NCBI GenBank assembly: GCA_016787045.1
Contig: JAEUVA010000011.1
Coordinates: 143,028-207,027, forward strand
Length of the DNA stretch: 64,000 nucleotides
Source of the DNA: Chitinophagales bacterium
GTDB lineage: Bacteria; Bacteroidota; Bacteroidia; Chitinophagales; LD1
Direction: 5' to 3'
Position numbers and translations under genes: made by a program. A model generated the notes under the pieces. That model searched no databases and was not told the origin of the DNA. It saw only the letters and a program-made list of their open reading frames with translations. Of the stretch, positions 12,120 through 39,468 are shown piece by piece. How positions within the stretch are numbered: the stretch's first letter is position 1; each line of letters starts with the position of its first letter.

Positions 12120-13126
12120 TGAAATATCTGTATCCGATCATATTGTTTGTTTTAAGTACCCTATTGCAGTCGTGCTTTAAAGACAACTCCATTTCGTATC
12201 CTTATGACCATTACCCAAACGTGATTCATGCCAGCACTACCGTAGATAGTTTTTCTTCGAAATATGCTCGGGTAAGCGTTAGTCTGGTACCGTTCATTTT
12301 TGATGCTTCATCCGAAAAGTTTCTGCCATATCTTGATTTCGATTCGCTGGTAGTTAGCCCCGGCAACAACTATACCGTCAAGCCATTAGGAATTACTAAC
12401 AACACCTCTCCCCTGCCTCCCACCAATTTATCTCTGATGGTGTTGTTTGATTACTCTGCCGGATCGGGTAAATATTATGACCAACTTACGCCTCCTATTT
12501 TGCATTTGTATCAACAGTTGGGCGCTAATCAAGAGGTGGCTATTGCCATTAACTCCGGCACTCAAGATTCAACATTAAACATCGTTGGCGATGGATTTTA
12601 CAGTAGCTATGCCGAAAAACAAATAGATGAATTTGTGAGTTCTGCCCCCCTGCTGGGTGGTGGCGAAAACCTGATAAAGGGAATAGACAGCGCACTGACT
12701 TACTTGGCTCAACAAGGAAAACATTCCAATAAACAATTGCTCATTATCAGCAACAAACCTTATCTACTTACCTCTTACACCGTGGTCAATGCACTTGTTC
12801 AAAAAGCCAACTCGTTGGGCGTAACCATCAACTTTAAAAATGTTGGATACGCCACCAATATAAACAACTGGTTTTTTGAGGTTAACAAACTGGCCAGCGC
12901 TACAGGTGGATTGTATACCACAAGCGATGCGGACGAACTGTTGGGGCACTCATTAAGCTTGCTTCGCCCCGATAGGCAAACTGTTACAGCTACATTTGAA
13001 ATTATCAGAGCCCAATCGTATTACAACTCGGGGTACTATTATGCTAACGGTTTAGATATCTACTACAAGGCCTATAACACCCACGAATTAGAAGATTTTG
13101 TGCGATTTGTTTTTGAAATACCATGA
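12119..13126 (+). CDS. Lipoprotein with VWA-like domain (degenerate MIDAS)
   Basis: The lipobox is LSTLLQSC. VWA-like positions read MVLFDYSAGSG, GGGENLIKGIDSAL and LLIISNKPY, with the metal ligands partly lost. The start overlaps the upstream stop by 1 nt. Confidence 0.45.
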   Translation: MKYLYPIILFVLSTLLQSCFKDNSISYPYDHYPNVIHASTTVDSFSSKYARVSVSLVPFIFDASSEKFLPYLDFDSLVVSPGNNYTVKPLGITNNTSPLPPTNLSLMVLFDYSAGSGKYYDQLTPPILHLYQQLGANQEVAIAINSGTQDSTLNIVGDGFYSSYAEKQIDEFVSSAPLLGGGENLIKGIDSALTYLAQQGKHSNKQLLIISNKPYLLTSYTVVNALVQKANSLGVTINFKNVGYATNINNWFFEVNKLASATGGLYTTSDADELLGHSLSLLRPDRQTVTATFEIIRAQSYYNSGYYYANGLDIYYKAYNTHELEDFVRFVFEIP

Positions 13127-16100
13127 GTAAACCAAACTTCACTTTCAGCGTTCCCGGCAAAACCATACTACTCATAGTATGGTTATTCTTGCTTTCTGAT
13201 TTACACGCACAGCAACAGCTGGAGGTAACGGTACAAGGCGGCCATACCAGTTATATCCGCAAGATGTGTTTTAGCTCAGACGGTTCTTTATTAGCAAGTG
13301 CTGATGAATCCGGTAAGTTAACAGTATGGAATGTTTCTACCGGATCTCAGCTAAGCAACTCAGCAACCGGATTACGAATATTAAGCATGTTATTTGTTAA
13401 TGATACAACTATAGCATATGCCGGTAAGGATCTGCTTCAGGAAATTATTCCGCAAAAGGAGGTTGTAAAGAAAGGGCTGTTTAACCGCACCAAAGAAGCC
13501 ACCTTAGAAACACCTACTGATTTTATTCTATACAATATCTCTACTGGAGCCAGGCGCGAAACTGCTTCCATAGCAGATTTGATGCCACAATCAACCACCT
13601 ACAGCCAAGACTTTAATCTTATCTACAAAGGCCAAATTGTATATACCCACAGGTACCATGACGAGGCATACACCGATTTTTTTGTTGATGCCGCGAACAA
13701 CCGCATTTATACTAGTTGCTCGGATGGGCGCTACTATGTGATAAGCACCAGCGGAAAAAGAATTAAAAAATCGGGCAGATACCATGCCGGCCAAATGACA
13801 AGTATTGCTGTGTCGGCAAACACAAAGTATATTGCCTCTGCCGGGCAAGACAAAAAAATTGTGGTTTGGGATGGCAGCCGCCACGAGCCGCTAAAAGAGC
13901 TATTGCCCCGCGTAAATGCGATTACTGCACTCACCATAGTACCCGGCAAAAACGAAGTGATGTATGCCGATATCAACGGTCGCCTAAAACTGTTAAACCT
14001 GGCAGATTACAAACTACCGGTTTCCCTTATTTCTTCTAACAAAGTATTTATCGATAAGCTCGCAGCTTCCGGCAAATGGGGCATTGCCGCATCAGATATC
14101 AGCAACAAAATATCCTTTTACAAAAACAGTCAAATAGTAAACACCGTCACCCAGTTTCCCGGCATCAGCAAGCGAATTATTAAAAACAGCAATACATTTA
14201 AAGTAAACAGTAACAGGCATCTTTCGTTTAGCCCCGATTCTTTGGCACTATTGGCCAGTGGTGGGTTTTACAAAAACCGGCTTACGGTTTTCAACCTTCA
14301 AAAAAAGTACCGGTACTCCCCCATTACCGGGCCATACCGCTACAACATAGAGCGGCAAGAGCGCTCTGCATTTTTGACAGACAATACTTTTTTGAGCAGC
14401 GATGGCAAACAGTTTCTTAATTGGGAGTCTTCTAGAACCGGTACGTTTTTCAATGCCAGCGAGCCCAAAATACCTACTTGTCATAATCTGATGTATTATA
14501 GACCTGATACTTGCATTGCAGTATGTAAAAACGCCATATATTCTATTAGCAAAAATCAACTGTTACAGTACCATTTACTAACCGACAAGGTAAATGCCAG
14601 CGCTTACAGTTTGTTACAACACTATAAGTACAACCAATTTGTGGTGTCTAATGCCGGTACTTTACAGTTTGGCAACCGCACTTCCGGTAATTTTGTGTCT
14701 TCCGGCAACTCACATAGTGGCGACATTACCGGCATCTCCTATATTGATAATGGCTCTAAAGTAATTTCCGGGTCAGTAGATGGTACCCTTAAAATTTGGA
14801 ACTCTACTACCGGTGAGTTGATATTAACCGTGTTGCCTATTGATGAAAGCGAACGCATGCTGATTACTCCAGATAACTACTATATGGCCCCTCGCGGGTT
14901 AACCAATGAAGTAGGGTTTAAGCTGGGCATGAATTATTACCCGGCAGAGCAGTTTGACTTGAAGTACAACCGGCCAGATATTGTACTTAGTCGGCTAAAA
15001 GGTGCTGACGACCACCTCATATCACTGCTGCATAACGCTTACAAAAAAAGATTACAACGGTTAGGGTTGACCGAAGAAGAGTTGTCTGCCGAGGCAAACG
15101 TTCCACAAGTAGAGATAAGCAACAAAAAAAGTGTGCCTCTAAGTACTAAAGAAAGCGTACTCAAGTTGGATATACGGGCATCTGATGCTTTGCACCCTCT
15201 CAAAAAAATTAATGTTTGGGTTAACAACGTTCCCATATTTGGCAAGTCGGGGGTGCCTGCAACCGGTAAGTCTTGGGGGAAAAACGGGGTGGCCATACCT
15301 CTCACCCCGGGCAATAACCTAATACAGGTGAGCTGTGTAAACAATGCCGGTGCAGAGTCGCTGCGCGATGCCGTATCGGTAACATACAGCGCATCCAAAC
15401 AAACCTTACCCGATTTATTTATCGTTTCCATCTCGGTATCTGACTATGAAGACAAACGATGGAGCTTAAAATACCCTGTAAAAGATGGAAGAGATATGGT
15501 GGCTACTTTTACCGAAAATAAAAAACTGTTTGGGCAAATACATATAGACACGCTTTTTAATGCTTCGGCTACAACTAAAAATATTGAAGCCCTGAGACAA
15601 AAACTGCTACAGTCAAAAACAAACGATTACATCATCGTATTTTTATCTGGCCATGGGCTCTTGAGCAGCAACGGAGATTTTTATTTTGCTACCTGGGATT
15701 GTAACTTCAACCAACCCGAAAAAAACGGTTTGCCTTTTTTAAGCGTTGAAAATTTACTGGATAGCATCCCCGCTCGCAACAAGCTACTATTAATGGATGC
15801 CTGCCACTCTGGAGAATTAGATAAAACCGACTGGCAGAATCCTTCCGCAACAAAGCAACCCGATGATAAAAACATACAAGGGCTATTATTAAGCAGCGGA
15901 AAAAAAGGAGCAATAGTTGATAATGAAGAAAAGCCCGCATCTCTTCACGGACTCAACAACTCGTTTGAACTAATGAAAGACCTGTTTACCGATGTGAATA
16001 AAGGATCGGGCACTATAGTGATATCTGCGGCCGCAGGCAACAGCTTTGCATTAGAGGGTGACAAATGGAAAAATGGTGTGTTTACCTACAGTTTGTTAGA

Positions 16101-16263
16101 GGGCATAAAAACCCGTAAGGCCGACTTGAATGGAGACAAGCGGATAAATGTGGGAGAACTAAAAGAATATGTTTCTAACCGGGTTTACCAGATAACCGAT
16201 GGCAAGCAAAAGCCCACCTCTCGCCAAGAAAACCTATACAACAATTTTGTTATCTGGAAATGA
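13123..16263 (+). CDS. Exported WD40-repeat / caspase (peptidase C14) domain protein
   Basis: The signal peptide ends in LSDLHAQ. WD40 units include GHTSYIRKMCFSSDGSLLASADESGKLTVWNV and GDITGISYIDNGSKVISGSVDGTLKIWNS. The C-terminal caspase unit has IIVFLSGHG (His codon 15652-15654) and LLLMDACHSGE (Cys codon 15802-15804). Confidence 0.8.
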   Translation: MSKPNFTFSVPGKTILLIVWLFLLSDLHAQQQLEVTVQGGHTSYIRKMCFSSDGSLLASADESGKLTVWNVSTGSQLSNSATGLRILSMLFVNDTTIAYAGKDLLQEIIPQKEVVKKGLFNRTKEATLETPTDFILYNISTGARRETASIADLMPQSTTYSQDFNLIYKGQIVYTHRYHDEAYTDFFVDAANNRIYTSCSDGRYYVISTSGKRIKKSGRYHAGQMTSIAVSANTKYIASAGQDKKIVVWDGSRHEPLKELLPRVNAITALTIVPGKNEVMYADINGRLKLLNLADYKLPVSLISSNKVFIDKLAASGKWGIAASDISNKISFYKNSQIVNTVTQFPGISKRIIKNSNTFKVNSNRHLSFSPDSLALLASGGFYKNRLTVFNLQKKYRYSPITGPYRYNIERQERSAFLTDNTFLSSDGKQFLNWESSRTGTFFNASEPKIPTCHNLMYYRPDTCIAVCKNAIYSISKNQLLQYHLLTDKVNASAYSLLQHYKYNQFVVSNAGTLQFGNRTSGNFVSSGNSHSGDITGISYIDNGSKVISGSVDGTLKIWNSTTGELILTVLPIDESERMLITPDNYYMAPRGLTNEVGFKLGMNYYPAEQFDLKYNRPDIVLSRLKGADDHLISLLHNAYKKRLQRLGLTEEELSAEANVPQVEISNKKSVPLSTKESVLKLDIRASDALHPLKKINVWVNNVPIFGKSGVPATGKSWGKNGVAIPLTPGNNLIQVSCVNNAGAESLRDAVSVTYSASKQTLPDLFIVSISVSDYEDKRWSLKYPVKDGRDMVATFTENKKLFGQIHIDTLFNASATTKNIEALRQKLLQSKTNDYIIVFLSGHGLLSSNGDFYFATWDCNFNQPEKNGLPFLSVENLLDSIPARNKLLLMDACHSGELDKTDWQNPSATKQPDDKNIQGLLLSSGKKGAIVDNEEKPASLHGLNNSFELMKDLFTDVNKGSGTIVISAAAGNSFALEGDKWKNGVFTYSLLEGIKTRKADLNGDKRINVGELKEYVSNRVYQITDGKQKPTSRQENLYNNFVIWK

Positions 16264-17115: not shown

Positions 17116-17121
17116 CCTTTA

Positions 17122-17175
17122 TTATTGGCTGCTTTTAAAGTCCTTCACCATCCACTCCAAGGTCACCTTTACTTA
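17122..17175 (-). pseudogene. Orphan remnant of a recJ 3' end
   Basis: The minus strand reads (stop)VKVTLEWMVKDFKSSQ(stop). The intact recJ ends in GKVSLEWMVKDLRSTPTTY. The 20-nt TCCTTCACCATCCACTCCAA at 17141-17160 is identical to 23384-23403. Confidence 0.55.
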
Positions 17176-17361
17176 GGAGCCGGATTTCTACACGGCAACA
17201 CAACTTTTCAAATCTCTCTACGCGAAGACTTGTAAGAATTTGTATTCTTTTTCTTGTTCCACATTTAGCTTTCGCAATTTTCTGTCGTGGTGGAATTATT
17301 TTTTGTAAATCTGGAAATATTATTTATATATTTAACTATTCATCCACCAAAATACAAACCT

Positions 17362-17448
17362 ATGAAACCAGCATTACTTAGCAGAGGGGGGGGGCAAGAG
17401 TTTAAAGATAATTCTCTATTTTTTCATTCTTGTACAGCTAAAAGTTAA
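17362..17448 (+). other. Orphaned ATG and first residues of the signal-peptide region of the downstream giant ORF, frameshifted at a G9 tract
   Basis: ATG 17362 gives MKPALLSRGGG and then stops at 17446-17448. After the G tract the +1 frame reads KSLKIILYFFILVQLKVNPVLSQA/LPNLGS, continuous with the ORF at 17468. Confidence 0.6.
17386..17394 (+). repeat. Poly-G tract (G9), candidate slipped-strand switch
   Basis: The sequence is AGA GGGGGGGGG CAA. A length of G8 or G11 would put ATG 17362 in frame with the 1385-aa ORF. Confidence 0.8.
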
Positions 17449-17467
17449 TCCGGTATTATCGCAGGCC

Positions 17468-20400
17468 TTGCCTAACTTGGGAAGCTTGGTCAATTTCGGG
17501 GTACTGTCCGGGGGCACCATAACCGCTACAGATACAATTCAAGCGCATGGTTATGTTGGCGGTGTATCACTTGTAGATACCAAGATACATGCAACTAATA
17601 TTTACCAAGGTGGAGCTTTAGTAAGCACCGCTTTGGCTGATCTGAATACTGCAAAGAGTAATATGCTGGCAATGGGGGGAAACAACATAAACGGGCTGCT
17701 AAACGGGCAGGTGATTACCGAAGGAACATATTCCGTTACCGGTAATGCAAATTTGAATGATACCTTGTTTTTAGTTGGCAATCAAAGTTCGGTCATAGTA
17801 TTCAATATTAGTGGTAACCTTACTGTGGGGGTCAATGCCAGAGTAGTGTGGCAAAGCGGCAGTATGGTAAATCCTGAGCAGATATATTGGAATGTGCAGG
17901 GTACTACTGCCATAAATTCATCCTGTTGGTTTAATGGCGTGGTGCTTGGCACACAAAACATAACCGTCAATGGCATATTCTACGGTAATGTAACTTTATT
18001 TTCATTACAGAATGTAACCTTTGATGGCCAACAATTTTTATATCACAATAGCCCTTATGTAATGGGTTTTGGCGTTACATCCGTATATAACATGTTGGGT
18101 AGCCGAAGCGCACCCTGCGAAGATAACTCTCCACTAATTTGTGGTGAAATTGTTAAGAGTGGTGGCTTTGAGGTATACGATGTGAATGTAGGTTGTCCGA
18201 AAGATATTGTCCTATCGGGTCAGTATTTCCCGGGCTGTAGTTGGGAAACAACTCCGTTTCCACAAGCGGTTCCAACCCCCGATTTGTTTAATACCTGTTC
18301 TGTTGGTACCGATGTGGCAGTGCCGTTAAACGGCTACGGTACACAGCAACCACAATCAGGTAGTGGTTATGCCGGCATTTTTTCTGGAGATAATGCGCCC
18401 GGTTCTTTTTACACAGAAGGTTTGACCCAGCCCTTAGCAAACTTGGTGGTGGGTAGGGTATATTATACTGAGGTGTTTGTTTGCTTAGCCGAGGCCTCAA
18501 CATTGGCCAGCAGAATGGGATTTATGCTTACAGACGGAAGTGCTCAAAGTTATTTTACTTACCTTCATCCCACGCCTATTACAAGTAAAGCTGCATGGAT
18601 TCCAATGCGTGCATGTTTTACGGCTACACCGGATCACAAAGAGATATGGATAACCAGAAATATTAACGGCAACACACCACCTGTGCCTGTGGCGTCTGGC
18701 CCGGGGCCTTATACATACAGTAATTTTTTCAATTTTAACTTTGCCTATTACTATGTTGATGGCGTTTCTGTAAAACCTTTGGCAGATGCCGGGTTGGGCA
18801 AAACTGTTTGCTCGTTGAATACAACTCTCGGTAACGGGTGTGACCCTCTTACAGGAGTTACTTATAGTTGGTCTAAGTCCTCCGGTCCGGGCACAGTTGG
18901 TTTTGCGCCATCAAATGCGATGAACACCACTGCTACATTTTCAACTGCCGGAACGTATGTGTTAACATTAACTGCATCATTTGGCGGATGCACCGCCACC
19001 CATGACGTAACGGTTACCGTTTCTTTGCCTCCCAATGCCGCCATAAGCCCATCAAATGCAACTATCTGTTCGGGCCAACAAGTTACACTCACGGCCATTG
19101 GTGGTACTACTTACAGCTGGAACAATGGGCTGGGATCCGGGGCAACAAAAACAGTATCTCCTTTATCAACCACTAACTACACTGTAACTGTAACCAATGC
19201 CGCCAACTGCTCCGCTACGGCAACGGCATCTGTTACTGTGAATAATGCTCCTTTTACCATCACAAAAACGGTCAGTAACGCTACGCCTATTACACAAAGC
19301 AATTTTACCTATACCATCACCCTTACTAATATCACCTCCAGCAGCATAGTTGTTTCATTAACAGATAATGTTCCAGCCAGTTTGCAAATCATATCTGCCC
19401 CCGGCCTGAACATAACAGGACAACAGTTAGCTAACGCAAATATTACAATAGCACCAAACGCCTCTGTTAATTTTGTGGTTACAGTAAAAAGTACTCTCAC
19501 ATTTGGCGGCAGTACACAGTGTAACTATAGCTCGCAAAGCGTAATAAATACAGCCACAGCATCACTTGTTGGCGGTAGTTGTTCTTTTTCGCTTTATTCA
19601 AGTGCCACAGTTACCGTGCTGAGTCACCGAGTAGTTGGAAGTGCAGTTAATATACCTACTGTTTCACAAGCCATTGCCCAAGGCATGCTGCTTCCAATGG
19701 GGGGGCCTACTAACTCCACCAACACAAGCCAAACCTTTACCATAGACGGCAACTTTATTGTGGATATGAATTATGATTTTGGTAACAGCGCTCAGTTTAT
19801 CAATTCATATGCAAATTGCCGCCCCGGAGCACAAGTTACTGTAAATAGTAACTGCAAGTTATCAGGTTATAACCTACGTTTTCAACCTTGTACTCAACTT
19901 TGGAAAGGGATAGTGGTTACTGGTAGCTCGTGGTTTACGTCTGCGGGCGAATTGTTATTAAGGAATTCTACCGTCAACGGTGCTCAATACGGAGTGACGC
20001 TTTATGATGGATCTAAAATTGCGGTTTCAAATACAGAGTTTCGTGAATGCTTTGTTGGCGTTTATTTTCCTGATGTTTATTTACTAACTCCATCCGTAGT
20101 TTTTACCTCCCCTTTTGCCGGCAATATCTTTAACAGCTTCGGAAATATGCCAGCGGCATATTCAGGTATGGTGAATGCCACCAATCAACCCACCGTAGCT
20201 CAAATACCTACCACCAATCGCAGGACATGGGCAGGTATTCATGTGGGGAGATTATCCAACTTCACTTGTTCTGGCAATACGTCTGCTACTACCTTTAGTG
20301 GATTAGCCAACGGTATAGTAGCTAATGAATGTGCTCTTAATGTTACCGGCTCATTTTTTAATGATATTCTGCCGTATGGCTATAACTTCAATGGTTTACA

Positions 20401-21625
20401 AGGTAACGGCATACATTCCAAAGCCGCATTGGTGCAGCAGATCGGAGGAAATCCCTATGCCTCTGTCAGTTTATACCAAAGAGGAAATGGTTTTAATACC
20501 AATCCTTTTACTTGCTACAGTAGTTTTGGAAATTGCACTAATGGTATTGTTGCTGTTGGGGTAAACGTAGATATTGCACAAAACTGTTTTAGCTATACCA
20601 ACGCGATTTCAGTAACCGGTGTAAAGCGAGGCAATATTCGCATTAACAACAATAACTTTCACACAACCAATAAAGCCATTCTGTTGTCTAACAACGACCC
20701 GGTTAACATTATGGATGTAGGCCCAAGTACGGTAGTACAGAATGGGGGCGTATCGGCTATAGACATACAAGAACAAAACAATGCTCCATTGACCAGCGCA
20801 GAAATTCACCACAATCGCATTCAGATGAATACCAACTTGTTTACCGGCCTTGCGCTGAACAGTTGCAGTGGGGTAAACAGTACTAACTACAACTATAAAG
20901 TTTACAACAACACGGTTATACTCAATACGCCAACCAGCAATTTGATGGGAGTTAGTTATCAAAACTGTCAGTTTGTAGAATCGTCACAAAACTTGGTGGC
21001 TGGCACTTCTGCCTCTACCCAAAGTTTTGTGGCCGGATACCCCACAGCTATTAACTACAGCACCTCTAGTATGCGGCTAAAGTGCGACTCCGTAGCCAAT
21101 GTGTACAACGGAAAAAAAATTTACGGTACCTGCAATAATACCACTATCCGGGGCTGTGTAATGAACAACCATACCTACGGCTTTTACCAAACTAATGGCG
21201 GCACCATACCCCCACAGGGCAGCAGTACCGAGAGTTATGGAAACCGCTGGCGGGGTAGCTACATTACCAATTCTGCAAAAAATGAAAATGCAGCCCTCAC
21301 TCTGATTTATGTAAAGGGTACATCTCTGCCATACTGGCCACATGCGTCAGGTATAACTACGCCTAATACGGGGTGGTTTACCTCATCCGTAGGAAATCCT
21401 TTTTTGTGCACTGGTATTTTTGGAGCAGGTTTTAAAAATGAAGAAGATGATGCCATACTCAATTCGTTAGACGAACAAATACTTGATGATAGTTTACGCT
21501 TTGAAGAGTTTAATGAACAACTTAAATGGCAAAACGAAATGGCTCTGTATGAAAAGTTGAAGGATAATCCGGAAGTGTTAGAGCAGAAAGCTACAGCAGA
21601 AGTGTTTTTGAGCAAAAACAGGTAG
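17468..21625 (+). CDS. Giant surface protein (ice-binding-like DUF3494 N-domain, Ig/PKD-like and DUF11-like repeats, parallel beta-helix), frameshifted at both ends
   Basis: The N-terminus LGSLVNFGVLSGGTITATD..ALADLNTAKSNM resembles the DUF3494 family. Other units are PKD-like SKSSGPGTVGFAP..TAGTYVLTLTA, DUF11-like FTITKTVSNATPITQSNFTYTITLTN, and beta-helix-like repeats. As written it starts at a TTG with no signal peptide. Confidence 0.7.
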   Translation: MPNLGSLVNFGVLSGGTITATDTIQAHGYVGGVSLVDTKIHATNIYQGGALVSTALADLNTAKSNMLAMGGNNINGLLNGQVITEGTYSVTGNANLNDTLFLVGNQSSVIVFNISGNLTVGVNARVVWQSGSMVNPEQIYWNVQGTTAINSSCWFNGVVLGTQNITVNGIFYGNVTLFSLQNVTFDGQQFLYHNSPYVMGFGVTSVYNMLGSRSAPCEDNSPLICGEIVKSGGFEVYDVNVGCPKDIVLSGQYFPGCSWETTPFPQAVPTPDLFNTCSVGTDVAVPLNGYGTQQPQSGSGYAGIFSGDNAPGSFYTEGLTQPLANLVVGRVYYTEVFVCLAEASTLASRMGFMLTDGSAQSYFTYLHPTPITSKAAWIPMRACFTATPDHKEIWITRNINGNTPPVPVASGPGPYTYSNFFNFNFAYYYVDGVSVKPLADAGLGKTVCSLNTTLGNGCDPLTGVTYSWSKSSGPGTVGFAPSNAMNTTATFSTAGTYVLTLTASFGGCTATHDVTVTVSLPPNAAISPSNATICSGQQVTLTAIGGTTYSWNNGLGSGATKTVSPLSTTNYTVTVTNAANCSATATASVTVNNAPFTITKTVSNATPITQSNFTYTITLTNITSSSIVVSLTDNVPASLQIISAPGLNITGQQLANANITIAPNASVNFVVTVKSTLTFGGSTQCNYSSQSVINTATASLVGGSCSFSLYSSATVTVLSHRVVGSAVNIPTVSQAIAQGMLLPMGGPTNSTNTSQTFTIDGNFIVDMNYDFGNSAQFINSYANCRPGAQVTVNSNCKLSGYNLRFQPCTQLWKGIVVTGSSWFTSAGELLLRNSTVNGAQYGVTLYDGSKIAVSNTEFRECFVGVYFPDVYLLTPSVVFTSPFAGNIFNSFGNMPAAYSGMVNATNQPTVAQIPTTNRRTWAGIHVGRLSNFTCSGNTSATTFSGLANGIVANECALNVTGSFFNDILPYGYNFNGLQGNGIHSKAALVQQIGGNPYASVSLYQRGNGFNTNPFTCYSSFGNCTNGIVAVGVNVDIAQNCFSYTNAISVTGVKRGNIRINNNNFHTTNKAILLSNNDPVNIMDVGPSTVVQNGGVSAIDIQEQNNAPLTSAEIHHNRIQMNTNLFTGLALNSCSGVNSTNYNYKVYNNTVILNTPTSNLMGVSYQNCQFVESSQNLVAGTSASTQSFVAGYPTAINYSTSSMRLKCDSVANVYNGKKIYGTCNNTTIRGCVMNNHTYGFYQTNGGTIPPQGSSTESYGNRWRGSYITNSAKNENAALTLIYVKGTSLPYWPHASGITTPNTGWFTSSVGNPFLCTGIFGAGFKNEEDDAILNSLDEQILDDSLRFEEFNEQLKWQNEMALYEKLKDNPEVLEQKATAEVFLSKNR

Positions 21626-21639
21626 AAGCTATAGGCGAA

Positions 21640-21825
21640 TTGAGCGCAGCCAATGAAGCCAAACTATACGACAACCTCGGTCGGGTAATATCAGAACAAC
21701 TATTTATGCTCAGCAATAATCGTTATCGTTTAGGAACCGAAAAATTAAGTCAGGGATTATATTTTATACGTGTCAGTAAAAATTCAGAGTTTATATTCTC
21801 TGATAAGTTCACAATACATCGGTAA
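21640..21825 (+). CDS. Detached T9SS C-terminal sorting-domain fragment
   Basis: KLYDNLGRVISEQ..LSQGLYFIRV..DKFTIHR matches the distal two-thirds of the sorting domains seen in three other proteins in this window. This frame is open from 21568. Confidence 0.5.
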   Translation: MSAANEAKLYDNLGRVISEQLFMLSNNRYRLGTEKLSQGLYFIRVSKNSEFIFSDKFTIHR

Positions 21826-23369
21826 TGAAAACCTACATTAAACTACTAAAGCGCAGTTGCGCTTTAGTAGGCCCTATCTTCTTTTTTTTAACAACCACAA
21901 TTGCTCAGAAACAAGATTACGTTTGGCTATCGGGTTATAACTCTGCATATGTTGAGGACACCGGGTTGAACGCAAAATTTGGTGTCAATAAAATAGATTT
22001 TAACACAGAACCAGCCATTATTACCCGAGACAGCTTAGGCATGGGATTTAGATTTACGAATGTCAGTTATTCTAACGCTAACGGCAATTTATTATTCTAT
22101 TCCAATGGCATATATATAGCTAATTCGTTAGATGAAAGAATTGAAAACAGCGATAGTATGAATGCGGGTTTTTGGCAATATGAATGGGACTTGAGTGCAC
22201 AGGATATCGGGTACATAACATATAACGGAATTTTGGCTTTAGAAGATCCATCTTCTCCCGGAAGCTTTTATCTGATTCATAGTTTTATTGATACGGTAGA
22301 TGCTAACCTCAACTTTGGCTGCACGCGCATTTACTCCACTTACCTTGATATGAACGCCAACGCAGGGCGTGGTAAAGTGTTAGCTAAAGACCAAACAATT
22401 TTAAGCGGACGCTTTGGTTATGAATTAAAGGCAACCCGTCATGCCAACGGCAGAGATTGGTGGCTATTGGTGCAAAAGCGAAGCACTAATTGTTATGAAC
22501 GGATTCTTATAGATGATAAAGGCATTCATACCCTTGGCACCACCTGTGGTGGACAGTCCGTAAATGGTGCATCCGGGTCTGCATGTTTCTCACAGGATGG
22601 CAGCAAATATGTTTATGTGGGGATGTATGGAGGCATCAACTTGTTTGACTTTGACCGCTGTACGGGTGAGCTAAGTAATCCACAATACTTCCCGCTCACT
22701 ATCTTTCAGGATTTAGGGGCTATCGGTATTGGTTCTGCTTTTTCTCCCAAGGGCAGATTTCTCTACGTAAATGCCACTATTCACTGTTACCAGTTCGATT
22801 TATGGGCTGCCGATGTTTGGACTTCCATAGATACAGTAGCAGTGTACGATGGCTTTGCCGCCCCTTTTGGCAGTGCTTTTCACACCATGCAAATTGCGCC
22901 TGATGGTAAAATTTACTCAAGCTGTGGCAATACAGAATGGGTTTACCATGTGATCGATAGCCCCGACCGAAAAGGCGACTCCTGTCTGTTCAAACAGCAT
23001 GGAGTTGAGTTGCCTTCATATTCTGGAGGAGTGCCTAACTTTGTCAACTACCGGCTCGGTGCTTTGGCGGGTAGTCCTTGTGATACAATTGCAAGCCGAC
23101 CCGGTAGTGGGCAAGAAAAAGACATCCGTGTGTACCCTAATCCAGCCACCGATTTTGTAACTGTAGATTACGGCTTCACCAACTGGAGTAAAGGCGAGAT
23201 TTTTTTAGAGATAACCAATGGGCTTGGGCAAATAGTTTACCGCCAGAAGCCACCCATGTACAGCGGGCTTCAAAAGATAGAGGTTTCTCGGTTAGCAGCC
23301 GGAGTTTACCAGATTACTCTGCAGCGTAACGGTTTGGTGACGGCCAAAGAGCAGTTTAGTAAGTTGTAG
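21825..23369 (+). CDS. T9SS cargo protein, beta-propeller-like, function unknown
   Basis: There is a signal peptide. The C-terminal sorting domain reads IRVYPNPATDFVTVDY..LAAGVYQITLQRNG. Confidence 0.7.
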   Translation: MKTYIKLLKRSCALVGPIFFFLTTTIAQKQDYVWLSGYNSAYVEDTGLNAKFGVNKIDFNTEPAIITRDSLGMGFRFTNVSYSNANGNLLFYSNGIYIANSLDERIENSDSMNAGFWQYEWDLSAQDIGYITYNGILALEDPSSPGSFYLIHSFIDTVDANLNFGCTRIYSTYLDMNANAGRGKVLAKDQTILSGRFGYELKATRHANGRDWWLLVQKRSTNCYERILIDDKGIHTLGTTCGGQSVNGASGSACFSQDGSKYVYVGMYGGINLFDFDRCTGELSNPQYFPLTIFQDLGAIGIGSAFSPKGRFLYVNATIHCYQFDLWAADVWTSIDTVAVYDGFAAPFGSAFHTMQIAPDGKIYSSCGNTEWVYHVIDSPDRKGDSCLFKQHGVELPSYSGGVPNFVNYRLGALAGSPCDTIASRPGSGQEKDIRVYPNPATDFVTVDYGFTNWSKGEIFLEITNGLGQIVYRQKPPMYSGLQKIEVSRLAAGVYQITLQRNGLVTAKEQFSKL

Positions 23370-25125
23370 GTGTACTTCGTAAATCCTTCACCATCCACTC
23401 CAAACTTACCTTTCCGTTCCATTCGTTTTGTTCTATGTGGTAAGACACATCAACGGAGCCCTGCTTTAATAGCTGGTATTTATCGGCCATGCCGAAACCA
23501 ATGCCCGAGTATATTACGGTTGAGTTTTGGCGCAGTGAAAATTTGATGTGGGCTTCTTTCACCACTTTGCTCCATCCGGTATCTTGCAGGTTTTTAGTAA
23601 CGAATGTGGGCTTCATATTGCCCGGCCCAAAGGGCGCCATATCGCACAGTATTTTGTAAAATGAAGGGGTGATGATTTCCGGCTCTATTACAGCATCTAT
23701 TTCTAACTCGGGCACCAGGTGCTCTGGGGTAATGCGCTCGCTCACCACTCGCTCAAACGCTGTAGAAAAATTGCTAATCTTTTCTTTTTGCATAGTTAGC
23801 CCGGCAGCAAACTGATGGCCGCCAAACTGTATGAGGTGTTCGCGGCACGCATAAATGGCCTCGTACAGGTCAAAGTTTTTGACCGAGCGAGCCGAGCCGG
23901 TGAGTATGCCTTCTGCACTTTCGGTAAGTACAATAGTGGGGCGGTAGTAACTTTCGGTGAGCCGCGAGGCCACTATGCCCAGTACGCCTTTATGCCAATC
24001 GGGTTGAAAAACTACGGTGGTGTTTTGTTTCATCAATTGCTCATCGCGCTCAATCATGGCAAGTGCCTGTGCAGTAATATCGCGGTCTAAATCTTTGCGC
24101 TCGCCATTGAGTTTGTTGAGCTGAAAGGCCTGCTCTAATATATCGGCATCGTCTTCTTCGCCAATCAACAATTTTACGGCATGGCGGGCATCGTCCATAC
24201 GGCCAGCCGCATTGATGCGGGGTGCCAGCACAAACACCACGTTGGTAATATCTAATTTTTTACGCAACTGAAACTGGGGCGTTTCGTTTCGCTCTAACTC
24301 TTCGGCTGTAGCCGGAATGGTTAAGCCGGAAACTTCCAATAGTTTTTTAAGCCCCTGTGAGGGGTTGGTGTTTATTTTATCTAACCCATGCTTGGCCAGT
24401 ATGCGATTTTCTCCGGTAATAGGCACTATATCGGCACCAATGCTCAGGCAGAGTAAATCCAAATACTTGTAACATTTTTCTAATGGCCAATGTTGCTTTT
24501 GGCAAAAGGCCTGTATCAGTTTAAAGCCAATGCCACAGCCGCTGAGTTCTTTGTACGGATAGGGGCAATCGGTACGCTTGGGGTCTAAAACCGCCACTGC
24601 GTCTGGTAGAGTAGCATCGGGCAGGTGATGGTCGCCTATAATAAAATCTATCTGTTTTGAGTTGGCATAATCAACCTTATCGTGTGCTTTTATGCCACAA
24701 TCTAAAGCAATAATGAGCGATACGCCATTCGCTGCGGCATAGTCTATACTTTTAAAAGATATGCCATACCCCTCAGCATAGCGATGGGGTATATAGTACT
24801 CTACATTGGGATAAAACTCTTTGAAGAATGAATACACCGTGGCTACTGCCGTAGTGCCGTCCACATCGTAATCGCCATAGATTAAAACTTTTTCCCCCTT
24901 GCTTATCGCTTGCTCAATTCGTGTAATGGCCTTATCCATGTCTTTCATCAAAAACGGATCGTGCAGTGCATTTAATTCGGGTCTGAAAAATGCTTTGGCT
25001 TGTTCGTAGGTTTCTATGCCTCGTTGTACAAGCAGTTGACACAACACCGGATGAATGCGCAACTGTTGTTGCAGGGCATCTACTTTGTTTTTATCAAGCG
25101 GTATTTCGCGCCAGCGCAATTGCAT
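23356..25125 (-). CDS. recJ: Single-stranded-DNA-specific exonuclease RecJ
   Basis: DHH motifs are IYGDYDVDGTT, IALDCG and IIGDHHLP. DHHA1-type GGHQFAAG is present. Confidence 0.9.
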   Translation of the reverse strand: MQLRWREIPLDKNKVDALQQQLRIHPVLCQLLVQRGIETYEQAKAFFRPELNALHDPFLMKDMDKAITRIEQAISKGEKVLIYGDYDVDGTTAVATVYSFFKEFYPNVEYYIPHRYAEGYGISFKSIDYAAANGVSLIIALDCGIKAHDKVDYANSKQIDFIIGDHHLPDATLPDAVAVLDPKRTDCPYPYKELSGCGIGFKLIQAFCQKQHWPLEKCYKYLDLLCLSIGADIVPITGENRILAKHGLDKINTNPSQGLKKLLEVSGLTIPATAEELERNETPQFQLRKKLDITNVVFVLAPRINAAGRMDDARHAVKLLIGEEDDADILEQAFQLNKLNGERKDLDRDITAQALAMIERDEQLMKQNTTVVFQPDWHKGVLGIVASRLTESYYRPTIVLTESAEGILTGSARSVKNFDLYEAIYACREHLIQFGGHQFAAGLTMQKEKISNFSTAFERVVSERITPEHLVPELEIDAVIEPEIITPSFYKILCDMAPFGPGNMKPTFVTKNLQDTGWSKVVKEAHIKFSLRQNSTVIYSGIGFGMADKYQLLKQGSVDVSYHIEQNEWNGKVSLEWMVKDLRSTPTTY

Positions 25126-25134
25126 GCGGCAATG

Positions 25135-27228
25135 TTAGCGAACCACCGCAAATTTTTTGGTGGTGCCGGCTATTTGCAGGTAGTAAACTCCTTGCGGGAG
25201 GTTGGTAGTTTGAAGTTTGTGGTTTGTGGTTTGTGGTGCTACGCTCTCTATTAACTGGCCGTGTGCAGAGTAAATATGTAGCTGTATTTTTCCATCAAAA
25301 GCACTACTGTAAATGTTTAGTTCATCTTTTGTTGGGTTGGGATAAATACTAAACGCAATAGCCGGAGCAATGGAGGTTACATTATTAACTATCACGCTTT
25401 GACTTACAATGCAGCCCAAACTACTTTTTACATATATGGTGTAGGTGCCATCTGTAGGTACTGAGAAAATTGGAACAGATTGGTAGTTGATGCCATCTAA
25501 CGAATACTGGAGCGTATCGTTGCCGGCAGCGGCCACTACGGTAATGCTCCCCGGATTTCCGCCAAAGGAGCCAACGGTATTTACCGAACTAATGATAATA
25601 GAATCCGGGTAGTGTAGCTCAGTAGTAGCGTATCTGCGGCAGTTGTTGCTATCGCGCACCATTACCCAATAGTAACCGGGTGCTTGGCTCACTAACTCTA
25701 TGGCTTGTGTGCCGGTGTTCCACATAAAGGTATAATCATTTGGCGAGCCGGTGCTGGGCACTGCTGCCACGGCTCCGGTATTGGCACCGTAACAAACAAT
25801 GGGCGATTGGTCTATGCTTACGCTAAAGTGGCAGGAGTCGCAGTTGTACCTGCGCAGGTTTTCAATGGCGCGGTACAGGTTTAGCTTGCCATTGGTACGG
25901 GTAATGTTGTTGAAGGTAGAAACCCACTCTGCGGCTTCTAAAATATACTGGCGTATAAGTAACGCTGCCGAATCGGGTTTTTCGTACACATAGTCTATCA
26001 AACTTTTGCAGGCGGCTGCATACATAGCCCCAACAGCACCCGCTACATGTGGGGTGGCCATGGAGGTGCCGTTCATGTTTTGATAAAGTATGGGCGATGG
26101 TACCGTAGAATAGATGCCTGTGCCCGGAGCACCTAAGTCCACGCCAATTTTGCCATAACCCGAGCCGGTGTTGCGAAAATCTGTGCGGGTAATATTGGTT
26201 ACCCCTATCAGCCAGTTGCTGGGGCATTCGGTGGGGATGTCGTGCGCTACATCTATGTTGAGGTTTTTGTTGGGTGCGGCACCCGCGCTGATGATGCCCA
26301 CCGCCCCCATACTATCGTACATAGCGCACCAAATGGGGTAATCGGCAGGGTTGCCTTCGTCTATACCAAACGATGAATTGGTAGATACCACAAACGCACC
26401 TTGTGTGCCGAAGGATGTGTTGTATAACCTGCGCATTTCGCGGGCGTACTCGTAAGCCGCCACTACTTTGGCTTCATCTGTACTGCCGTAATTGATGCCC
26501 ATAATTTTGGCTCCCCAGCACACGCCTGCTACCCCCTTGCCATTATTGCCAATGGCAGCCGCAATACCGGCACAATGGGTAGAGTGGTACGCCCCAAAAC
26601 TTTGCGAATTGATGTTGCCGCTGTTGCTGGGCACATCCCATCCGCTAATGTCATCTATATATCCGTTGCCATCGTCATCTATGCCGTTGCCGGGCACTTC
26701 TCCGCGGTTTACAAAGTAGTTAATGTCTTCATGCGTTAAATCAAACTTGCCATCTACAATGGCAATGACTATGGTATCGCCATTTACGGTAACGTTGTCG
26801 TGATTAATGCTCCATGCATCGGTAGCATCAATATCGGCACCGGGCAAGCCGCCTTGCTGGCCGGTGTTGTACATGCCCCATTGCTCGTTAAACTTAGTAT
26901 CGTTGGGTATTAACTGCCGCTCTTGCACGCGGTGGTTAAATTGTGCCAGTTTGATGTGCGCGTTGCGTTTAAGCGCATACAAATACTCTTCGGCTTGTTG
27001 TGTGGTGTTGCGCTCTAAGAGCCAAATATTCATGCGCTTAGACAGGGGCTGAATGGTCGTTACCTCTTTTTCAAAAAATGGTTTCACCTCTGCTATATCA
27101 TGCCCGGGTTGGAGCATAACGATGTATTGGTTCAAAATGCGCTTATCGTCTGTTTCCCATTGGGCGAATGCCTTTTGAATAAATAAGAGGATGGTTATTA
27201 AAATGAAAATAAATCTTTGAGTGGACAT
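25135..27228 (-). CDS. S8 (subtilisin-family) serine peptidase with T9SS sorting domain
   Basis: The catalytic triad sits in VIAIVDG (Asp), HSTHCAGIAAA (His) and NGTSMATPHVAG (Ser). The sorting domain reads IYPNPTKDELNIY..LPQGVYYLQI. Confidence 0.85.
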   Translation of the reverse strand: MSTQRFIFILITILLFIQKAFAQWETDDKRILNQYIVMLQPGHDIAEVKPFFEKEVTTIQPLSKRMNIWLLERNTTQQAEEYLYALKRNAHIKLAQFNHRVQERQLIPNDTKFNEQWGMYNTGQQGGLPGADIDATDAWSINHDNVTVNGDTIVIAIVDGKFDLTHEDINYFVNRGEVPGNGIDDDGNGYIDDISGWDVPSNSGNINSQSFGAYHSTHCAGIAAAIGNNGKGVAGVCWGAKIMGINYGSTDEAKVVAAYEYAREMRRLYNTSFGTQGAFVVSTNSSFGIDEGNPADYPIWCAMYDSMGAVGIISAGAAPNKNLNIDVAHDIPTECPSNWLIGVTNITRTDFRNTGSGYGKIGVDLGAPGTGIYSTVPSPILYQNMNGTSMATPHVAGAVGAMYAAACKSLIDYVYEKPDSAALLIRQYILEAAEWVSTFNNITRTNGKLNLYRAIENLRRYNCDSCHFSVSIDQSPIVCYGANTGAVAAVPSTGSPNDYTFMWNTGTQAIELVSQAPGYYWVMVRDSNNCRRYATTELHYPDSIIISSVNTVGSFGGNPGSITVVAAAGNDTLQYSLDGINYQSVPIFSVPTDGTYTIYVKSSLGCIVSQSVIVNNVTSIAPAIAFSIYPNPTKDELNIYSSAFDGKIQLHIYSAHGQLIESVAPQTTNHKLQTTNLPQGVYYLQIAGTTKKFAVVR

Positions 27229-27277: not shown

Positions 27278-27604
27278 CTACTCGTTTAATATCTGGTCTG
27301 CTGTAATCAAAGGCGCCTCAATTTCTTGTGCTGTGCTAAATATGATTGAGTCGGCCAATTTGAGTTTATGTTTTTTGCAGTTTTCAATCGTTCTTTCTTT
27401 GATAGATGCACTCATTTCAATAATGATACATTCGTTTAACAGCGCTTGAGTGGCCTTTGTTTGTGCGGCAGTTAAATCCGGTTTAGATAAAATTTCTATT
27501 TCGTTGATAAATGAAACGTACCAGAGTTTATCTTTGATGAGATCGGCAATTGCTCGGTTGCCGTCTAACAAGTATATTAATACATTGGTATCAAGAAGCA
27601 GCAT
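27278..27604 (-). CDS. vapC: PIN-domain toxin VapC
   Basis: The N-terminus is MLLLDTNVLIYLLDGN. A downstream acidic residue (ADSIIFSTA) and ITADQ are present. The product is 108 aa. Confidence 0.8.
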   Translation of the reverse strand: MLLLDTNVLIYLLDGNRAIADLIKDKLWYVSFINEIEILSKPDLTAAQTKATQALLNECIIIEMSASIKERTIENCKKHKLKLADSIIFSTAQEIEAPLITADQILNE

Positions 27605-27771
27605 TATTCTTCTCTTCTTGATCGTTGGTACAAAACCGGATCTTCGGTTGCCTTTACTTTACCAAAAAACTTGCTCCAGTTTTGTTTTCTGGTAGCCAAT
27701 TTTTTTCTTCGGAGTTTCTCTAACTCTTGCTCTACCTGTACCTTTGACTTGCTGTTGAGCACTAATACCAT
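27604..27771 (-). CDS. Putative VapB-type antitoxin
   Basis: This is a 55-aa ORF from ATG 27771. Its stop overlaps the vapC ATG (TAATG). The longer listed version would overlap the kmo 3' end. Confidence 0.5.
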   Translation of the reverse strand: MVLVLNSKSKVQVEQELEKLRRKKLATRKQNWSKFFGKVKATEDPVLYQRSRREE

Positions 27772-27794
27772 ACCTGAAATTTTTCTAAAAGTAA

Positions 27795-29138
27795 TCAATT
27801 TTTTTCCAACCACTCCGCTGCCATTTTGAGCACCGTATCGCCTTGCCATTGTTGTTCTATATTATCAAGACGCATAATGGCCTCTAAAAGTTCGTTTTGT
27901 TTTTCTCCGCGCATTTTGGCTTCGTGGTAGCTGAGGTCGCTAAAGGTAACCATGCTGTAATGGGTCATAAATTTTTCGGGGAATGCTTCCGCTATACGTC
28001 TTTCTATTTGGGTGCGCAGTTGAAAATCTTTTCGCCCGCTGAGATCGCGCATTTCTATATAGTTGTGCAGCGCTAAATCTAAAATGGCATCGGCATTGGG
28101 CTTGCGTTGTGTTTGAAATTGGTATAATGTTTTTTCCCAATCTTCATGATGTTGGTTGAGCAGGTCATCCAGCTCGTTTACATCTTCAAACCCGCAGTTC
28201 ATGCCCTGGCCGTAAAACGGTACTATGGCGTGTGCGGCATCGCCTATCAAACAGGTGTTTTTGTATTTCCAGGGGTAGCAGCGGATGGTAACTAACGAGG
28301 AGGTGGGGTTTTTGAAAAACGTTTGGGCTAAATCGGGCATTAGCGCCAGCGCATCGGGGAAAAACTTTTGGAAAAATGCGGTTACCGATTTTTCATCTGT
28401 CAATTCAGCAAAAGAGTTTTCGCCTTCTAAGTTGTTAAACAACGTAAGGGTAAAGCTGCCATCGGTATTGGGCAGGGCAATGAGCATAAAACTGCCTCGC
28501 GGCCAAATGTGCAGCGCGTTTTTTTCCATCAGGTGCTCGCCATTGGGGCCGGGTGAAATGTGTAATTCTTTGTATCCGTACGGTTCGTGGTGCTGGTGAA
28601 TGTTGAAGTTGGGAGTGGTTTGCATTTGGTAGCGCACCTGGCTATAGGCCCCATCGCTGCCAAAAATGATGTCCGATTTTTGTGTGGCTATATTTTTTGA
28701 TTCGTTGTTTTCAAACTGCGCGGTGTTGGTGTCAAAATCGATGTGCGTGCAACGCTCATTAAAGTAAAAATCTACATTGGGGAACTTGTCGGCTTCTTCT
28801 ACCATGATGCGGTTGAGGTCGCCCCGGCTGATGGAGTAAATGGCTTGCCCCTCTTTGCCATAGGGAGTGAGTTGGGTATTGCCCTGCACATCGTGTATCA
28901 TGCGGCCATACATGGGTATGGCAATGTGCTCTACCTTTTCGTACAGCCCAATTTTTGATAATGCTTTGATACCGCGGTGGCTCAGCGCCAGGTTGATAGA
29001 GCGCCCGCCTATGTAGCCGGCTTTGCGCATATCGGGTCTGCGTTCATATACTTTTACGGTATGGCCGCGCCTGCTCATGTAGCAGGCGAGCATAGAGCCC
29101 ACCAACCCGGCTCCTACTATGGTTATTTGTTTTGCCAT
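27795..29138 (-). CDS. kmo: Kynurenine 3-monooxygenase (FAD-dependent)
   Basis: Motifs are ITIVGAGLVGS, GGRSINLALSHRGIKAL, LIGDAAHAIVPFYGQGMNCGFED. Confidence 0.85.
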   Translation of the reverse strand: MAKQITIVGAGLVGSMLACYMSRRGHTVKVYERRPDMRKAGYIGGRSINLALSHRGIKALSKIGLYEKVEHIAIPMYGRMIHDVQGNTQLTPYGKEGQAIYSISRGDLNRIMVEEADKFPNVDFYFNERCTHIDFDTNTAQFENNESKNIATQKSDIIFGSDGAYSQVRYQMQTTPNFNIHQHHEPYGYKELHISPGPNGEHLMEKNALHIWPRGSFMLIALPNTDGSFTLTLFNNLEGENSFAELTDEKSVTAFFQKFFPDALALMPDLAQTFFKNPTSSLVTIRCYPWKYKNTCLIGDAAHAIVPFYGQGMNCGFEDVNELDDLLNQHHEDWEKTLYQFQTQRKPNADAILDLALHNYIEMRDLSGRKDFQLRTQIERRIAEAFPEKFMTHYSMVTFSDLSYHEAKMRGEKQNELLEAIMRLDNIEQQWQGDTVLKMAAEWLEKN

Positions 29139-37623: not shown

Positions 37624-39468
37624 ATGAGAATTTCTTTTGTACTTCCTTTTTTGTTTGCGGTATTTTTTCTAAACGCCCAACAAACACCGCAACAAGGCAC
37701 CATAGCGCCAAGTGCCACTATTACACTATCAGACACTGCACATACCGATTTTGAACCATCCGTTACCAACATACAAGAGCAACCCAAACCCGCTACCGAT
37801 TTGCAAAACAAAAAAGCATTGCTTCATCAGCAACGCATCAAAAACAAAGCAGATATAAAAAAAAACGATGCACGAAGCGCAAAGCCCGATGCCCCCGTAC
37901 TGCTCAGCGGATTTAACGGCAACAGCGCACAAGGCACACCCAACGATAATCATATAGCAGTTAGCAATAATGGATGGATGGTGAGTGTGGTCAATACCAA
38001 CATCCGCGTATTTGATACTGCGGGTGTTTTAAAAAGCAATAAATCGCTCACTGTATTTGCACAGCCACTCGGCAGTTTTTCGCAAAACAGCGACCCGCGG
38101 GTAATCTACGATCCAGATAATGATCGGTTTATCGTTGTTTTCTTTTCGGGAGTGGTGAGCAGTACCAACAAAATTATCGTGGCTTTTTCAAAAACCGGAG
38201 ACCCTACTGCACAATGGAATTTATATCAACTGCCCGGCAATTACCTTAACGATACCACCTGGAGCGATTACCCCATTGTAAGCATCAGTAAGCACGATTT
38301 GTTTATGACCTTCAATCAACTCAAAGATGGGCAGGGCTGGCAAACTGGTTTCCGCTATTCTATTATCTGGCAAATCGATAAACAGAAAGGGTACAATGGC
38401 GATACGCTTACCTTTAACCACTGGAGCAATATTCAGTACAACAACAAACCGGTGTGGAGCATTTGCCCCGTAATGGAAGGCGCTGCATTTACCGATTCAG
38501 TTACATATTTTCTTTCGGTACGGCCTTCTGATTTGAATAATGATTCCGTGTTTTTGCACACCATTACCAACACCCAAAAATCGGGCATTGCCACACTAAG
38601 CACTCGTCTTTTAAAAACCAACACTCCGTACGGCTTAGCACCCAACGGCATACAACCCAGCGGACAGCAATTAGCTACCAACGATGCGCGGGTGCTGCAT
38701 GCTATCATTCACAACAACCGCATTTACTATGCACAAAATTGCATTACGCCATATACTACATCCGGCATTTACTTGGGTAGAATAGATAATCCCACTTCTC
38801 TATCACCCACCATCACCGGACAGATAATTGGTTACGATACTCTGGACCTCGGTTATCCGGCTATCACAAACATTGGTGTGGGGCCAAATGACTACCGCTC
38901 ATTTTTAGTATGCGGTTATACTTCCGATAAACTTTTTTCCGGCACTACAGCTTTTTATATAGATAATGATGGTAATGTATCAGACCCGCTCATTGTGAAA
39001 CAAGGCGAAGGCAATGTAAACGTACTGGCCGATAGCATTGAGCGCTGGGGCGATTACACCGGCATACAGCGGGTATATAACGAGCCCTTTACGGCTTGGC
39101 TGGCGCACTCTTATGGTCGCACCAATCAGGTACACGGTACATGGATTGCCAAAATTACCACGGCAGATACCGGTACAATTACAAATATTAAAACCGTTTC
39201 TCCGTCCATTCCAGCCAAAGTTTTTCCTAATCCGGTAGCAGAAACAGACCGCTTAACCGTACAGTTTGAATCGCAGAAAGGAGCGCACACCATTATTCAA
39301 CTAACCGATGTTAGCGGCAAAATATTACATAAGTTATTTGATGAATATCTAAAAGCCGGAGTCAATCAGTTTTCGTTTAATCCGCAACCATTGCCTTCTG
39401 GCGTATTTGTATTGCAGATTATTGAAAACGGAGTGGTGATAAAAACTGAAAGAGTGGTGATGCGATAA
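37624..39468 (+). CDS. T9SS cargo protein, function unknown
   Basis: There is a signal peptide. The C-terminal sorting domain reads VFPNPVAETDRLTVQF..LPSGVFVLQIIENG. Confidence 0.7.
   Translation: MRISFVLPFLFAVFFLNAQQTPQQGTIAPSATITLSDTAHTDFEPSVTNIQEQPKPATDLQNKKALLHQQRIKNKADIKKNDARSAKPDAPVLLSGFNGNSAQGTPNDNHIAVSNNGWMVSVVNTNIRVFDTAGVLKSNKSLTVFAQPLGSFSQNSDPRVIYDPDNDRFIVVFFSGVVSSTNKIIVAFSKTGDPTAQWNLYQLPGNYLNDTTWSDYPIVSISKHDLFMTFNQLKDGQGWQTGFRYSIIWQIDKQKGYNGDTLTFNHWSNIQYNNKPVWSICPVMEGAAFTDSVTYFLSVRPSDLNNDSVFLHTITNTQKSGIATLSTRLLKTNTPYGLAPNGIQPSGQQLATNDARVLHAIIHNNRIYYAQNCITPYTTSGIYLGRIDNPTSLSPTITGQIIGYDTLDLGYPAITNIGVGPNDYRSFLVCGYTSDKLFSGTTAFYIDNDGNVSDPLIVKQGEGNVNVLADSIERWGDYTGIQRVYNEPFTAWLAHSYGRTNQVHGTWIAKITTADTGTITNIKTVSPSIPAKVFPNPVAETDRLTVQFESQKGAHTIIQLTDVSGKILHKLFDEYLKAGVNQFSFNPQPLPSGVFVLQIIENGVVIKTERVVMR

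Follow-up and report, generated by a model that had tools for sequence, protein, structure and literature searches.

The poly-G genes of Neisseria include pilC, whose tract is located in the region that codes for the signal peptide. The phasome of Campylobacter jejuni likewise consists of genes subject to translational phase variation at poly-G/C tracts; the PhasomeIt cut-off for phase variation is a G/C run of at least 7, and every G/C tract of at least 8 was variable in C. jejuni NCTC 11168 (PMC6321876). Homopolymeric tracts are also known as sites of frameshift pseudogenes and of microevolution, in Bordetella pertussis (PMC1891110) and in the Mycobacterium tuberculosis complex (PMC10334774). 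Here we describe a run of nine G (G9) at the 5′ end of the gene for a very large surface protein, located in a 64-kb stretch of DNA (hereafter the window, at its full length) from a Chitinophagales bacterium. An initial annotation of this stretch had proposed the tract as a candidate phase switch. The position of the tract and the OFF state of the gene could be confirmed but not the switching itself, as the only other strain recovered also had G9 and no in-frame allele was found. We consider it fairly probable that the locus records a homopolymer frameshift common to two strains, followed by pseudogene decay of the surface-protein gene in the window genome.

Direct reading of the sequence agreed with the annotation for the short frame, in which the ATG at 17362, preceded by an A-rich leader (aaaatacaaacctATG), opens MKPALLSRGGG, crosses the G9 run and stops at 17446-17448 (Table 1). 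It agreed as well for the +1 frame, which had been described as running without a stop into the giant open reading frame (ORF) listed from TTG 17468: after the closing TGA 17363-17365, this frame stays free of stops up to TAG 21623-21625, reading ...GGGKSLKIILYFFILVQLKVNPVLSQALPNLGS... on its way. It contains no ATG, GTG or TTG between TGA 17363 and TTG 17468, and an alternative canonical start in the frame of the ORF was thus ruled out. When the tract length was changed in silico, G8 and G11 fused the ATG at 17362 to the ORF, giving proteins of 1420 and 1421 aa, respectively, whereas G9 stopped early and G10 stopped after 14 codons, as expected for a contingency locus. The in-frame G8 state would encode R-G-G-G in the n-region of the signal peptide. 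The proposal that G8 or G11 would restore one ORF with a signal peptide was thus correct, but restoration of a working protein was not supported, since the sorting domain for the type IX secretion system (T9SS) has been lost at the 3′ end.

The fused N-terminus displays a basic n-region (K2, R8, K12, and K15), a hydrophobic core, IILYFFILVQL, with an 11-residue Kyte-Doolittle mean of 2.7, and a predicted cleavage site that is preceded by S-Q-A. With the N-terminal 474 aa as query, we recovered a homolog, P0029 (Logan DRR493918, contig L084), with 48% identity over 317 aligned residues; this search may be incomplete, having missed P0001, the public record of the window ORF, despite 439 identical residues. 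The N-terminus of P0029, MKKFILLFNLFLFAGILHAQ/VLPTLGSAGSFGVLSG, is an ordinary short signal peptide located directly before a shared LPxLGS mature start. Since this signal peptide adjoins the same mature start, the +1-frame stretch of the window is predicted to be the true signal peptide of the gene, as had been proposed. The ORF from TTG 17468 begins at the mature end, so that the gene as sequenced is indeed OFF for export, and the N-terminal Sec signal peptide expected of T9SS cargo is present only after in-silico repair to G8. The G tract itself is absent from P0029. Because this 48% homolog has a plain signal peptide instead, the tract and the MKPALLSRGGG extension are, from this comparison, specific to the lineage and not a conserved design feature of the family. 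P0029 is the sole other homolog with the same domain order, and it is split into two ORFs by a frameshift around position 1109 (L084:1040-1180); located away from homopolymers, this split could be a low-coverage assembly error or could correspond to a second disrupted member of the family.

The sequence that changed the interpretation was P0028 (1662 aa), the third member of the 90% protein cluster of the window ORF, which originates from a run of another archive (DRR438492, contig L002). P0028 continues past the window stop through ...KATAEVFFEQKQVEAIGELSAANEAKL... and reads on via ...AEVFFEQKQ..., for about 240 more residues, up to a complete T9SS sorting domain, with Por_Secre_tail in frame (model positions 2-74 of 75). 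Pfam detected no sorting domain in the window ORF. Base-by-base alignment with L002 located two further lesions in the window copy (Table 1). The first is the loss of one base from a T6 run, which shifts the frame into the terminal TAG. The second is a 639-bp deletion between two 10-bp direct repeats, AGCCAAACTA, both of which are present in L002 (4322-4331 and 4961-4970); it takes out 213 codons, including the first third of the sorting domain. What is left of this domain, stranded in another frame (21649-21822), matches positions 21-75 of 75 in the Pfam model and 16-71 of 72 in TIGR04183. Judging from this alignment, the 3′ state of L002 must be ancestral, because the opposite order would require an insertion that by chance supplied the third now missing from a conserved domain, which is not credible.

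Taken together, G9, the T6-to-T5 change and the 639-bp deletion are multiple independent disabling lesions by comparison with an intact ortholog, as expected for a pseudogene. Because the T5 frameshift and the deletion have removed the sorting domain, repair of the G tract would not restore a secretable protein: the in-silico ON product of the window ends at TAG 21623, and the window copy has no C-terminal Por_Secre_tail/TIGR04183 domain in frame. The in-silico ON (G8) product of L002 is, in contrast, a complete 1700-aa cargo protein.

Indel miscalls occur most often in homopolymers, and the true tract could in principle be G8, with an intact 5′ end and a sequencing or assembly artefact in the deposited contig. 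The Logan assembly of SRR12425364 (L001 and L083) does little against this explanation: it matches the window at 100% identity along 16,708 bp, G9 included, and the window and L001 may share the same reads. A search of the literature for the accessions of the two runs retrieved no article. L002 is more telling. Within the gene, 17 substitutions and 2 indels separate it from the window, so that it represents a distinct strain, yet this independent run assembles exactly the same G9 (L002:50-58). The comparison of the tract therefore involves two independent sequences, both of them consensus assemblies. All 13 other long homopolymers of the window (A8, A9, T8, and G7) are located inside open ORFs, one A9 among them, which suggests that the lesions are specific to the big gene. 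As already stated in the annotation, the G7 at 45486-45492 is in frame, within a full-length MnmG/GidA gene. In addition, five suspicious pairs of adjacent or overlapping ORFs turned out to be separate, complete genes, and poor assembly quality overall was thus ruled out. Finally, the 639-bp deletion in the same gene cannot be a homopolymer miscall. Given the distinct strain with G9, the other homopolymers in frame and the unsplit ORF pairs, G9 is probably real and an artefact at the tract is very improbable; the doubts of the annotation about a blanket homopolymer artefact were well founded. The comparison of tract length among strains that it had recommended revealed no variation, with G9 in the window, in L001/L083 and in L002. 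The L002 contig begins 25 nt 5′ of the ATG and 49 nt before the tract, with its break just upstream of the start codon. Assuming a Logan k-mer of about 31, this break is too distant to stem from heterogeneity of the tract.

The pattern of substitutions between the two strains also set the gene apart from its neighbors. Between 17396 and 21602, the window and L002 differ by 15 nonsynonymous changes and a single synonymous one, compared with 15 nonsynonymous and 43 synonymous changes in three downstream genes (a 514-aa T9SS protein, RecJ, and an S8 peptidase; Fisher’s exact test, p = 1e-6). The contrast remained when a divergent recombinant patch in recJ was excluded, with 5 nonsynonymous and 23 synonymous changes left in the flanking genes (p = 9e-7). 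Such a ratio (15:1 versus 15:43) is that expected under relaxed purifying selection in a pseudogene. We polarized the well-aligned N-terminal differences using the 48% homolog from L084 as outgroup and obtained three derived changes in the window lineage and two in L002, the latter affecting the conserved motifs GCxW (W-to-C) and TPDLFNTC (D-to-N). Since derived changes, including some at conserved motifs, fall in both lineages, both look unconstrained in this alignment. The A8 run at 21112-21119, in frame within the big ORF, is interrupted in L002 (AATAAAAA, K to I), which accounts for one of the 15 nonsynonymous differences.

Synonymous divergence was 0.001 in the big gene, about 20-fold below that of the neighboring genes (around 0.02). 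With a value so far below that of its neighbors, this segment was evidently shared recently between the strains, and the G9 state would most simply be identical by descent in both. In the 5′ part of recJ (24654-25153, minus strand), the divergence from L002 reaches 31 mismatches per 500-bp bin, compared with 0-13 elsewhere. This patchy distribution looks like a recombination mosaic between close strains.

We suggest the following scenario for the decay of the gene. The poly-G tract has one base too many for its frame, G9 instead of the G8 required; translation that begins at ATG 17362 ends after 28 codons and leaves the gene body without a start that carries the export signal. The additional G would have arisen through slipped-strand mispairing in a G8 run long enough to be mutable. 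Because both strains carry G9, this change would by parsimony predate the other lesions. With the gene silent, constraint lapsed, as seen in strain differences that are nearly all nonsynonymous. The window lineage has gained the T6-to-T5 frameshift and the repeat-mediated 639-bp deletion that destroyed the T9SS sorting domain, both of which would have followed the silencing. Slippage back to G8 would still be mechanically possible but could not restore a secreted protein in the window genome, whereas the tract might yet act as a reversible OFF state in L002, which has kept an intact 3′ end. In the initial annotation, a uniform G9 was to indicate a fixed pseudogene, and the evidence leans in this direction.

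Several observations weigh against this scenario. Subpopulations with G8 or G10, if in the minority, would be invisible in only two consensus assemblies, and the presence of G9 in both strains could be due to homoplasy at a mutable tract. The proportion of nonsynonymous changes (15/16) is not significantly above the neutral expectation (77% nonsynonymous sites; binomial p = 0.084), and the 15:1 ratio is as compatible with neutral decay as with diversifying selection on a surface protein that is expressed intermittently. The recent sharing of the segment also leaves little time for decay.

Alternatively, the tract could be a working contingency locus, toggled by slipped-strand mispairing between ON (G8/G11) and OFF (G9/G10) states, with both populations mostly OFF. 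At nine bases, the tract exceeds the in-silico threshold for phase variation, and it occupies the classic position, within the first 11 codons of a large surface protein and in the n-region of its signal peptide. No other G/C run of at least 8 is present in the 64 kb, where the expectation for runs of at least 9 under independent and identically distributed bases is 0.13. Such tracts are also rare in other Bacteroidota loci, for which 1.28 Mb contained two G/C runs of at least 8 and none of at least 9; the tract is thus uncommon, yet a genome of 4-5 Mb could carry one by chance. It is furthermore built from GGG, the least-used Gly codon here (15%). The rest of the gene is intact in L002, the strain for which a switch is most plausible, and an excess of nonsynonymous changes would also be expected under diversifying selection on a surface antigen. 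We nevertheless consider this explanation unlikely. G9 was present in both strains, no in-frame allele was found among the three members of the 90% cluster, and the repaired 1420-aa protein, when compared with 5.8 billion proteins, only returned its own cluster and matches to PKD/Ig domains. The N-terminal 495 aa had no match in genomes of GTDB species representatives or in JGI metagenomes, and a DNA pattern made of the tract flanks with a variable gap had none in JGI metagenomes either. Moreover, the ON state of the window genome would be devoid of the T9SS sorting domain, a conserved Trp and a conserved Asp are altered in L002, the tract is absent from the 48% homolog, and no second tract in the window hints at a set of phase-variable genes.

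A bolder version would see in the tract a live slipped-strand switch that controls a giant ice-binding-like adhesin, secreted through the T9SS, in a Chitinophagales bacterium living free in fresh water. The two populations would have been sampled during an OFF phase, for instance one favored by phages or grazers; diversifying selection during ON phases would account for the 15:1 ratio, and the window strain would only recently have become locked OFF permanently. This version seems quite doubtful to us.

The gene could also be expressed despite G9, either because the RNA polymerase slips on the run, because tRNA-Gly slips by +1 on G GGG in the ribosome, or because a non-canonical codon (ATA 17408 or ATT 17411) allows weak initiation. 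The identical out-of-frame length in two strains would be explained in this way, and a GGG codon within the run, when shifted by +1, is again GGG. In addition, Met1 of P0029 aligns, when counted back from LPxLGS, with K15/I16 of the repaired N-terminus, beside the ATA and ATT codons. Slippage is, however, less efficient on G runs than on A/T runs, no stimulatory element was identified around the tract, and the zero frame after the run has neither a slow nor a stop codon (the next codon being CAA). The substitution pattern without purifying selection also argues against expression, and the window copy would in any case still be devoid of its sorting domain. We thus give this explanation hardly any credit. 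On the plus strand, the region from 17116 to 17361 contained no Bacteroidetes-type TAnnTTTG motif and no terminator, only weak sigma-70-like matches.

Returning to the decayed gene that we favor, its original product could be reconstructed in part. The N-terminal domain belongs to the DUF3494 family (PF11999), with a Pfam score of 59.9 bits above the curated threshold of 28.7 (residues 52-223 of the repaired protein; model positions 28-205 of 208), and matches the ice-binding/antifreeze proteins 5b5h, 4nu2, and 3wp9 of the PDB with E = 1e-7 to 1e-5; by this similarity it is ice-binding-like. The C-terminal region rich in Asn, Gly, and Thr is long and uncharacterized. The locus codes for a very large protein, T9SS cargo or surface-exposed, whose intact form, extrapolated from the related strain, would measure about 1700 aa and comprise a predicted signal peptide, DUF3494, PKD/Ig/DUF11 modules, the long C-terminal region and a type A sorting domain. 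In the public record (P0001, NCBI/nr), it appears as a plain 1385-aa coding sequence (CDS) from TTG, without signal peptide or sorting domain. In our reading, this deposited CDS is the middle of a T9SS cargo gene of about 1700 aa, minus start, signal peptide and sorting domain, and the public entry for 17468-21625 should carry a frameshifted/truncated flag.

Ordinary T9SS cargo genes with Por_Secre_tail are present in the neighborhood (21825-23369, 25135-27228, and 37624-39468). The upstream gene encodes YebC, whose closest relatives among GTDB species representatives, at 83% identity, are from metagenome-assembled genomes of freshwater Chitinophagales/‘Bacteroidetes’, which places the host among uncultured, Chitinophagales-like Bacteroidota. 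No ortholog of the big gene was found at the best 80 Bacteroidota loci encoding YebC; since the relatives’ loci are without it, the big gene is accessory by this comparison. In exact-protein look-ups, YebC (from ATG 16408) and the 514-aa neighbor matched the same Logan contig only, and the versions of YebC and of the big ORF starting at TTG were not on record.

Other genes of the window are worth mentioning. Two adjacent giant ORFs of the minus strand (56079-61031 and 61137-63959; 1650 and 940 aa, respectively) encode Peptidase_S74 domains (‘chaperone of endosialidase’). Four LbR_Ice_bind repeats (grass antifreeze beta-roll) are additionally present in the first, a second and unrelated annotation of the ‘ice-binding’ type in 64 kb. 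On the plus strand, a 1046-aa protein (13123-16263) has WD40 beta-propellers together with a caspase-like Peptidase_C14 domain at its C-terminus. A PIN-domain gene (108 aa) with an 81-aa upstream partner (27278-27849, minus strand) forms a toxin-antitoxin-like pair that is also present in L002.

Table 1. Coordinates of the surface-protein gene and of its lesions in the window.
Feature	Position	Strand	Remarks
ATG start codon of the ancestral gene	17362..17364	+	Sole canonical start that can be joined to the signal-peptide core
Dead-end frame of 28 codons, MKPALLSRGGGQEFKDNSLFFHSCTAKS, followed by TAA 17446-17448	17362..17448	+	Product of the frameshift
G9 homopolymer, one base out of phase	17386..17394	+	Direct reading and regular-expression search; same length in L001/L083 and L002
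Rest of the predicted signal peptide, KSLKIILYFFILVQLKVNPVLSQA, in the +1 frame, now without start codon	17396..17467	+	Aligns with the signal peptide/mature junction of P0029
ORF of 1385 codons, listed from TTG	17468..21625	+	DUF3494, uncharacterized region, PKD, Ig_7, DUF11, C-terminal region rich in Asn/Gly/Thr
Second lesion, T5 where the ortholog has T6; frameshift into TAG 21623-21625	21605..21609	+	Base-by-base alignment with L002
Leftover part of the T9SS type A sorting domain, out of frame	21649..21825	+	Ends at TAA 21823-21825
Third lesion, junction of the 639-bp (213-codon) deletion	21657..21666	+	One copy of AGCCAAACTA left

The locus can finally be compared with the systems from which we started and with the protein families to which its product belongs. 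Like T9SS type A cargo, which combines a Sec signal peptide with a C-terminal Por_Secre_tail/TIGR04183 domain, the ortholog P0028 has the full architecture, whereas the window copy has neither a translatable signal peptide nor a complete sorting domain in frame. Its N-terminal domain, above the Pfam gathering threshold, resembles that of the DUF3494 ice-binding proteins (PF11999; 5b5h, 4nu2, and 3wp9). It differs from them in that this single domain occupies the tip of a protein with many domains and about 1700 aa; its ice binding is putative, and many members of the DUF3494 family may not bind ice.

The resemblance to poly-G/C contingency loci is close at the 5′ end: a G/C run of at least 8 is located just after the start codon of a surface protein, one base toggles the frame, and the OFF state stops early. 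The locus departs from them in that no polymorphism of tract length was seen in two consensus sequences, the nearest homolog has no tract, and the ON state of the window copy would stay defective. The host, too, is a free-living Bacteroidota of freshwater type and not a host-adapted pathogen as for C. jejuni and Neisseria. No article joining poly-G phase variation with T9SS cargo was present among the top-ranked papers of our literature search. If the tract switches in the related strain, simple sequence repeat (SSR) contingency loci would include T9SS cargo and reach the Bacteroidota of the environment, which would take a known mechanism modestly further, into a new host group.

As in the Bordetella and M. 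tuberculosis cases, a single-base change in a G/C run inactivates a gene, the resulting state is common to related strains, and the boundary between reversible switch and fixed pseudogene is blurred. In form, the locus thus matches SSR phase variation and homopolymer-frameshift pseudogenes equally. We did not class it as phase-variable because the two sequences exhibit no length variation and the window genome has no functional ON state. Before a 5′ homopolymer frameshift is called a phase switch, the rest of the gene should accordingly be checked against an intact relative. The event itself is of a known kind; what distinguishes it from the Bordetella and M. tuberculosis cases is that secondary lesions and relaxed constraint could here be demonstrated against one relative with an intact tail.

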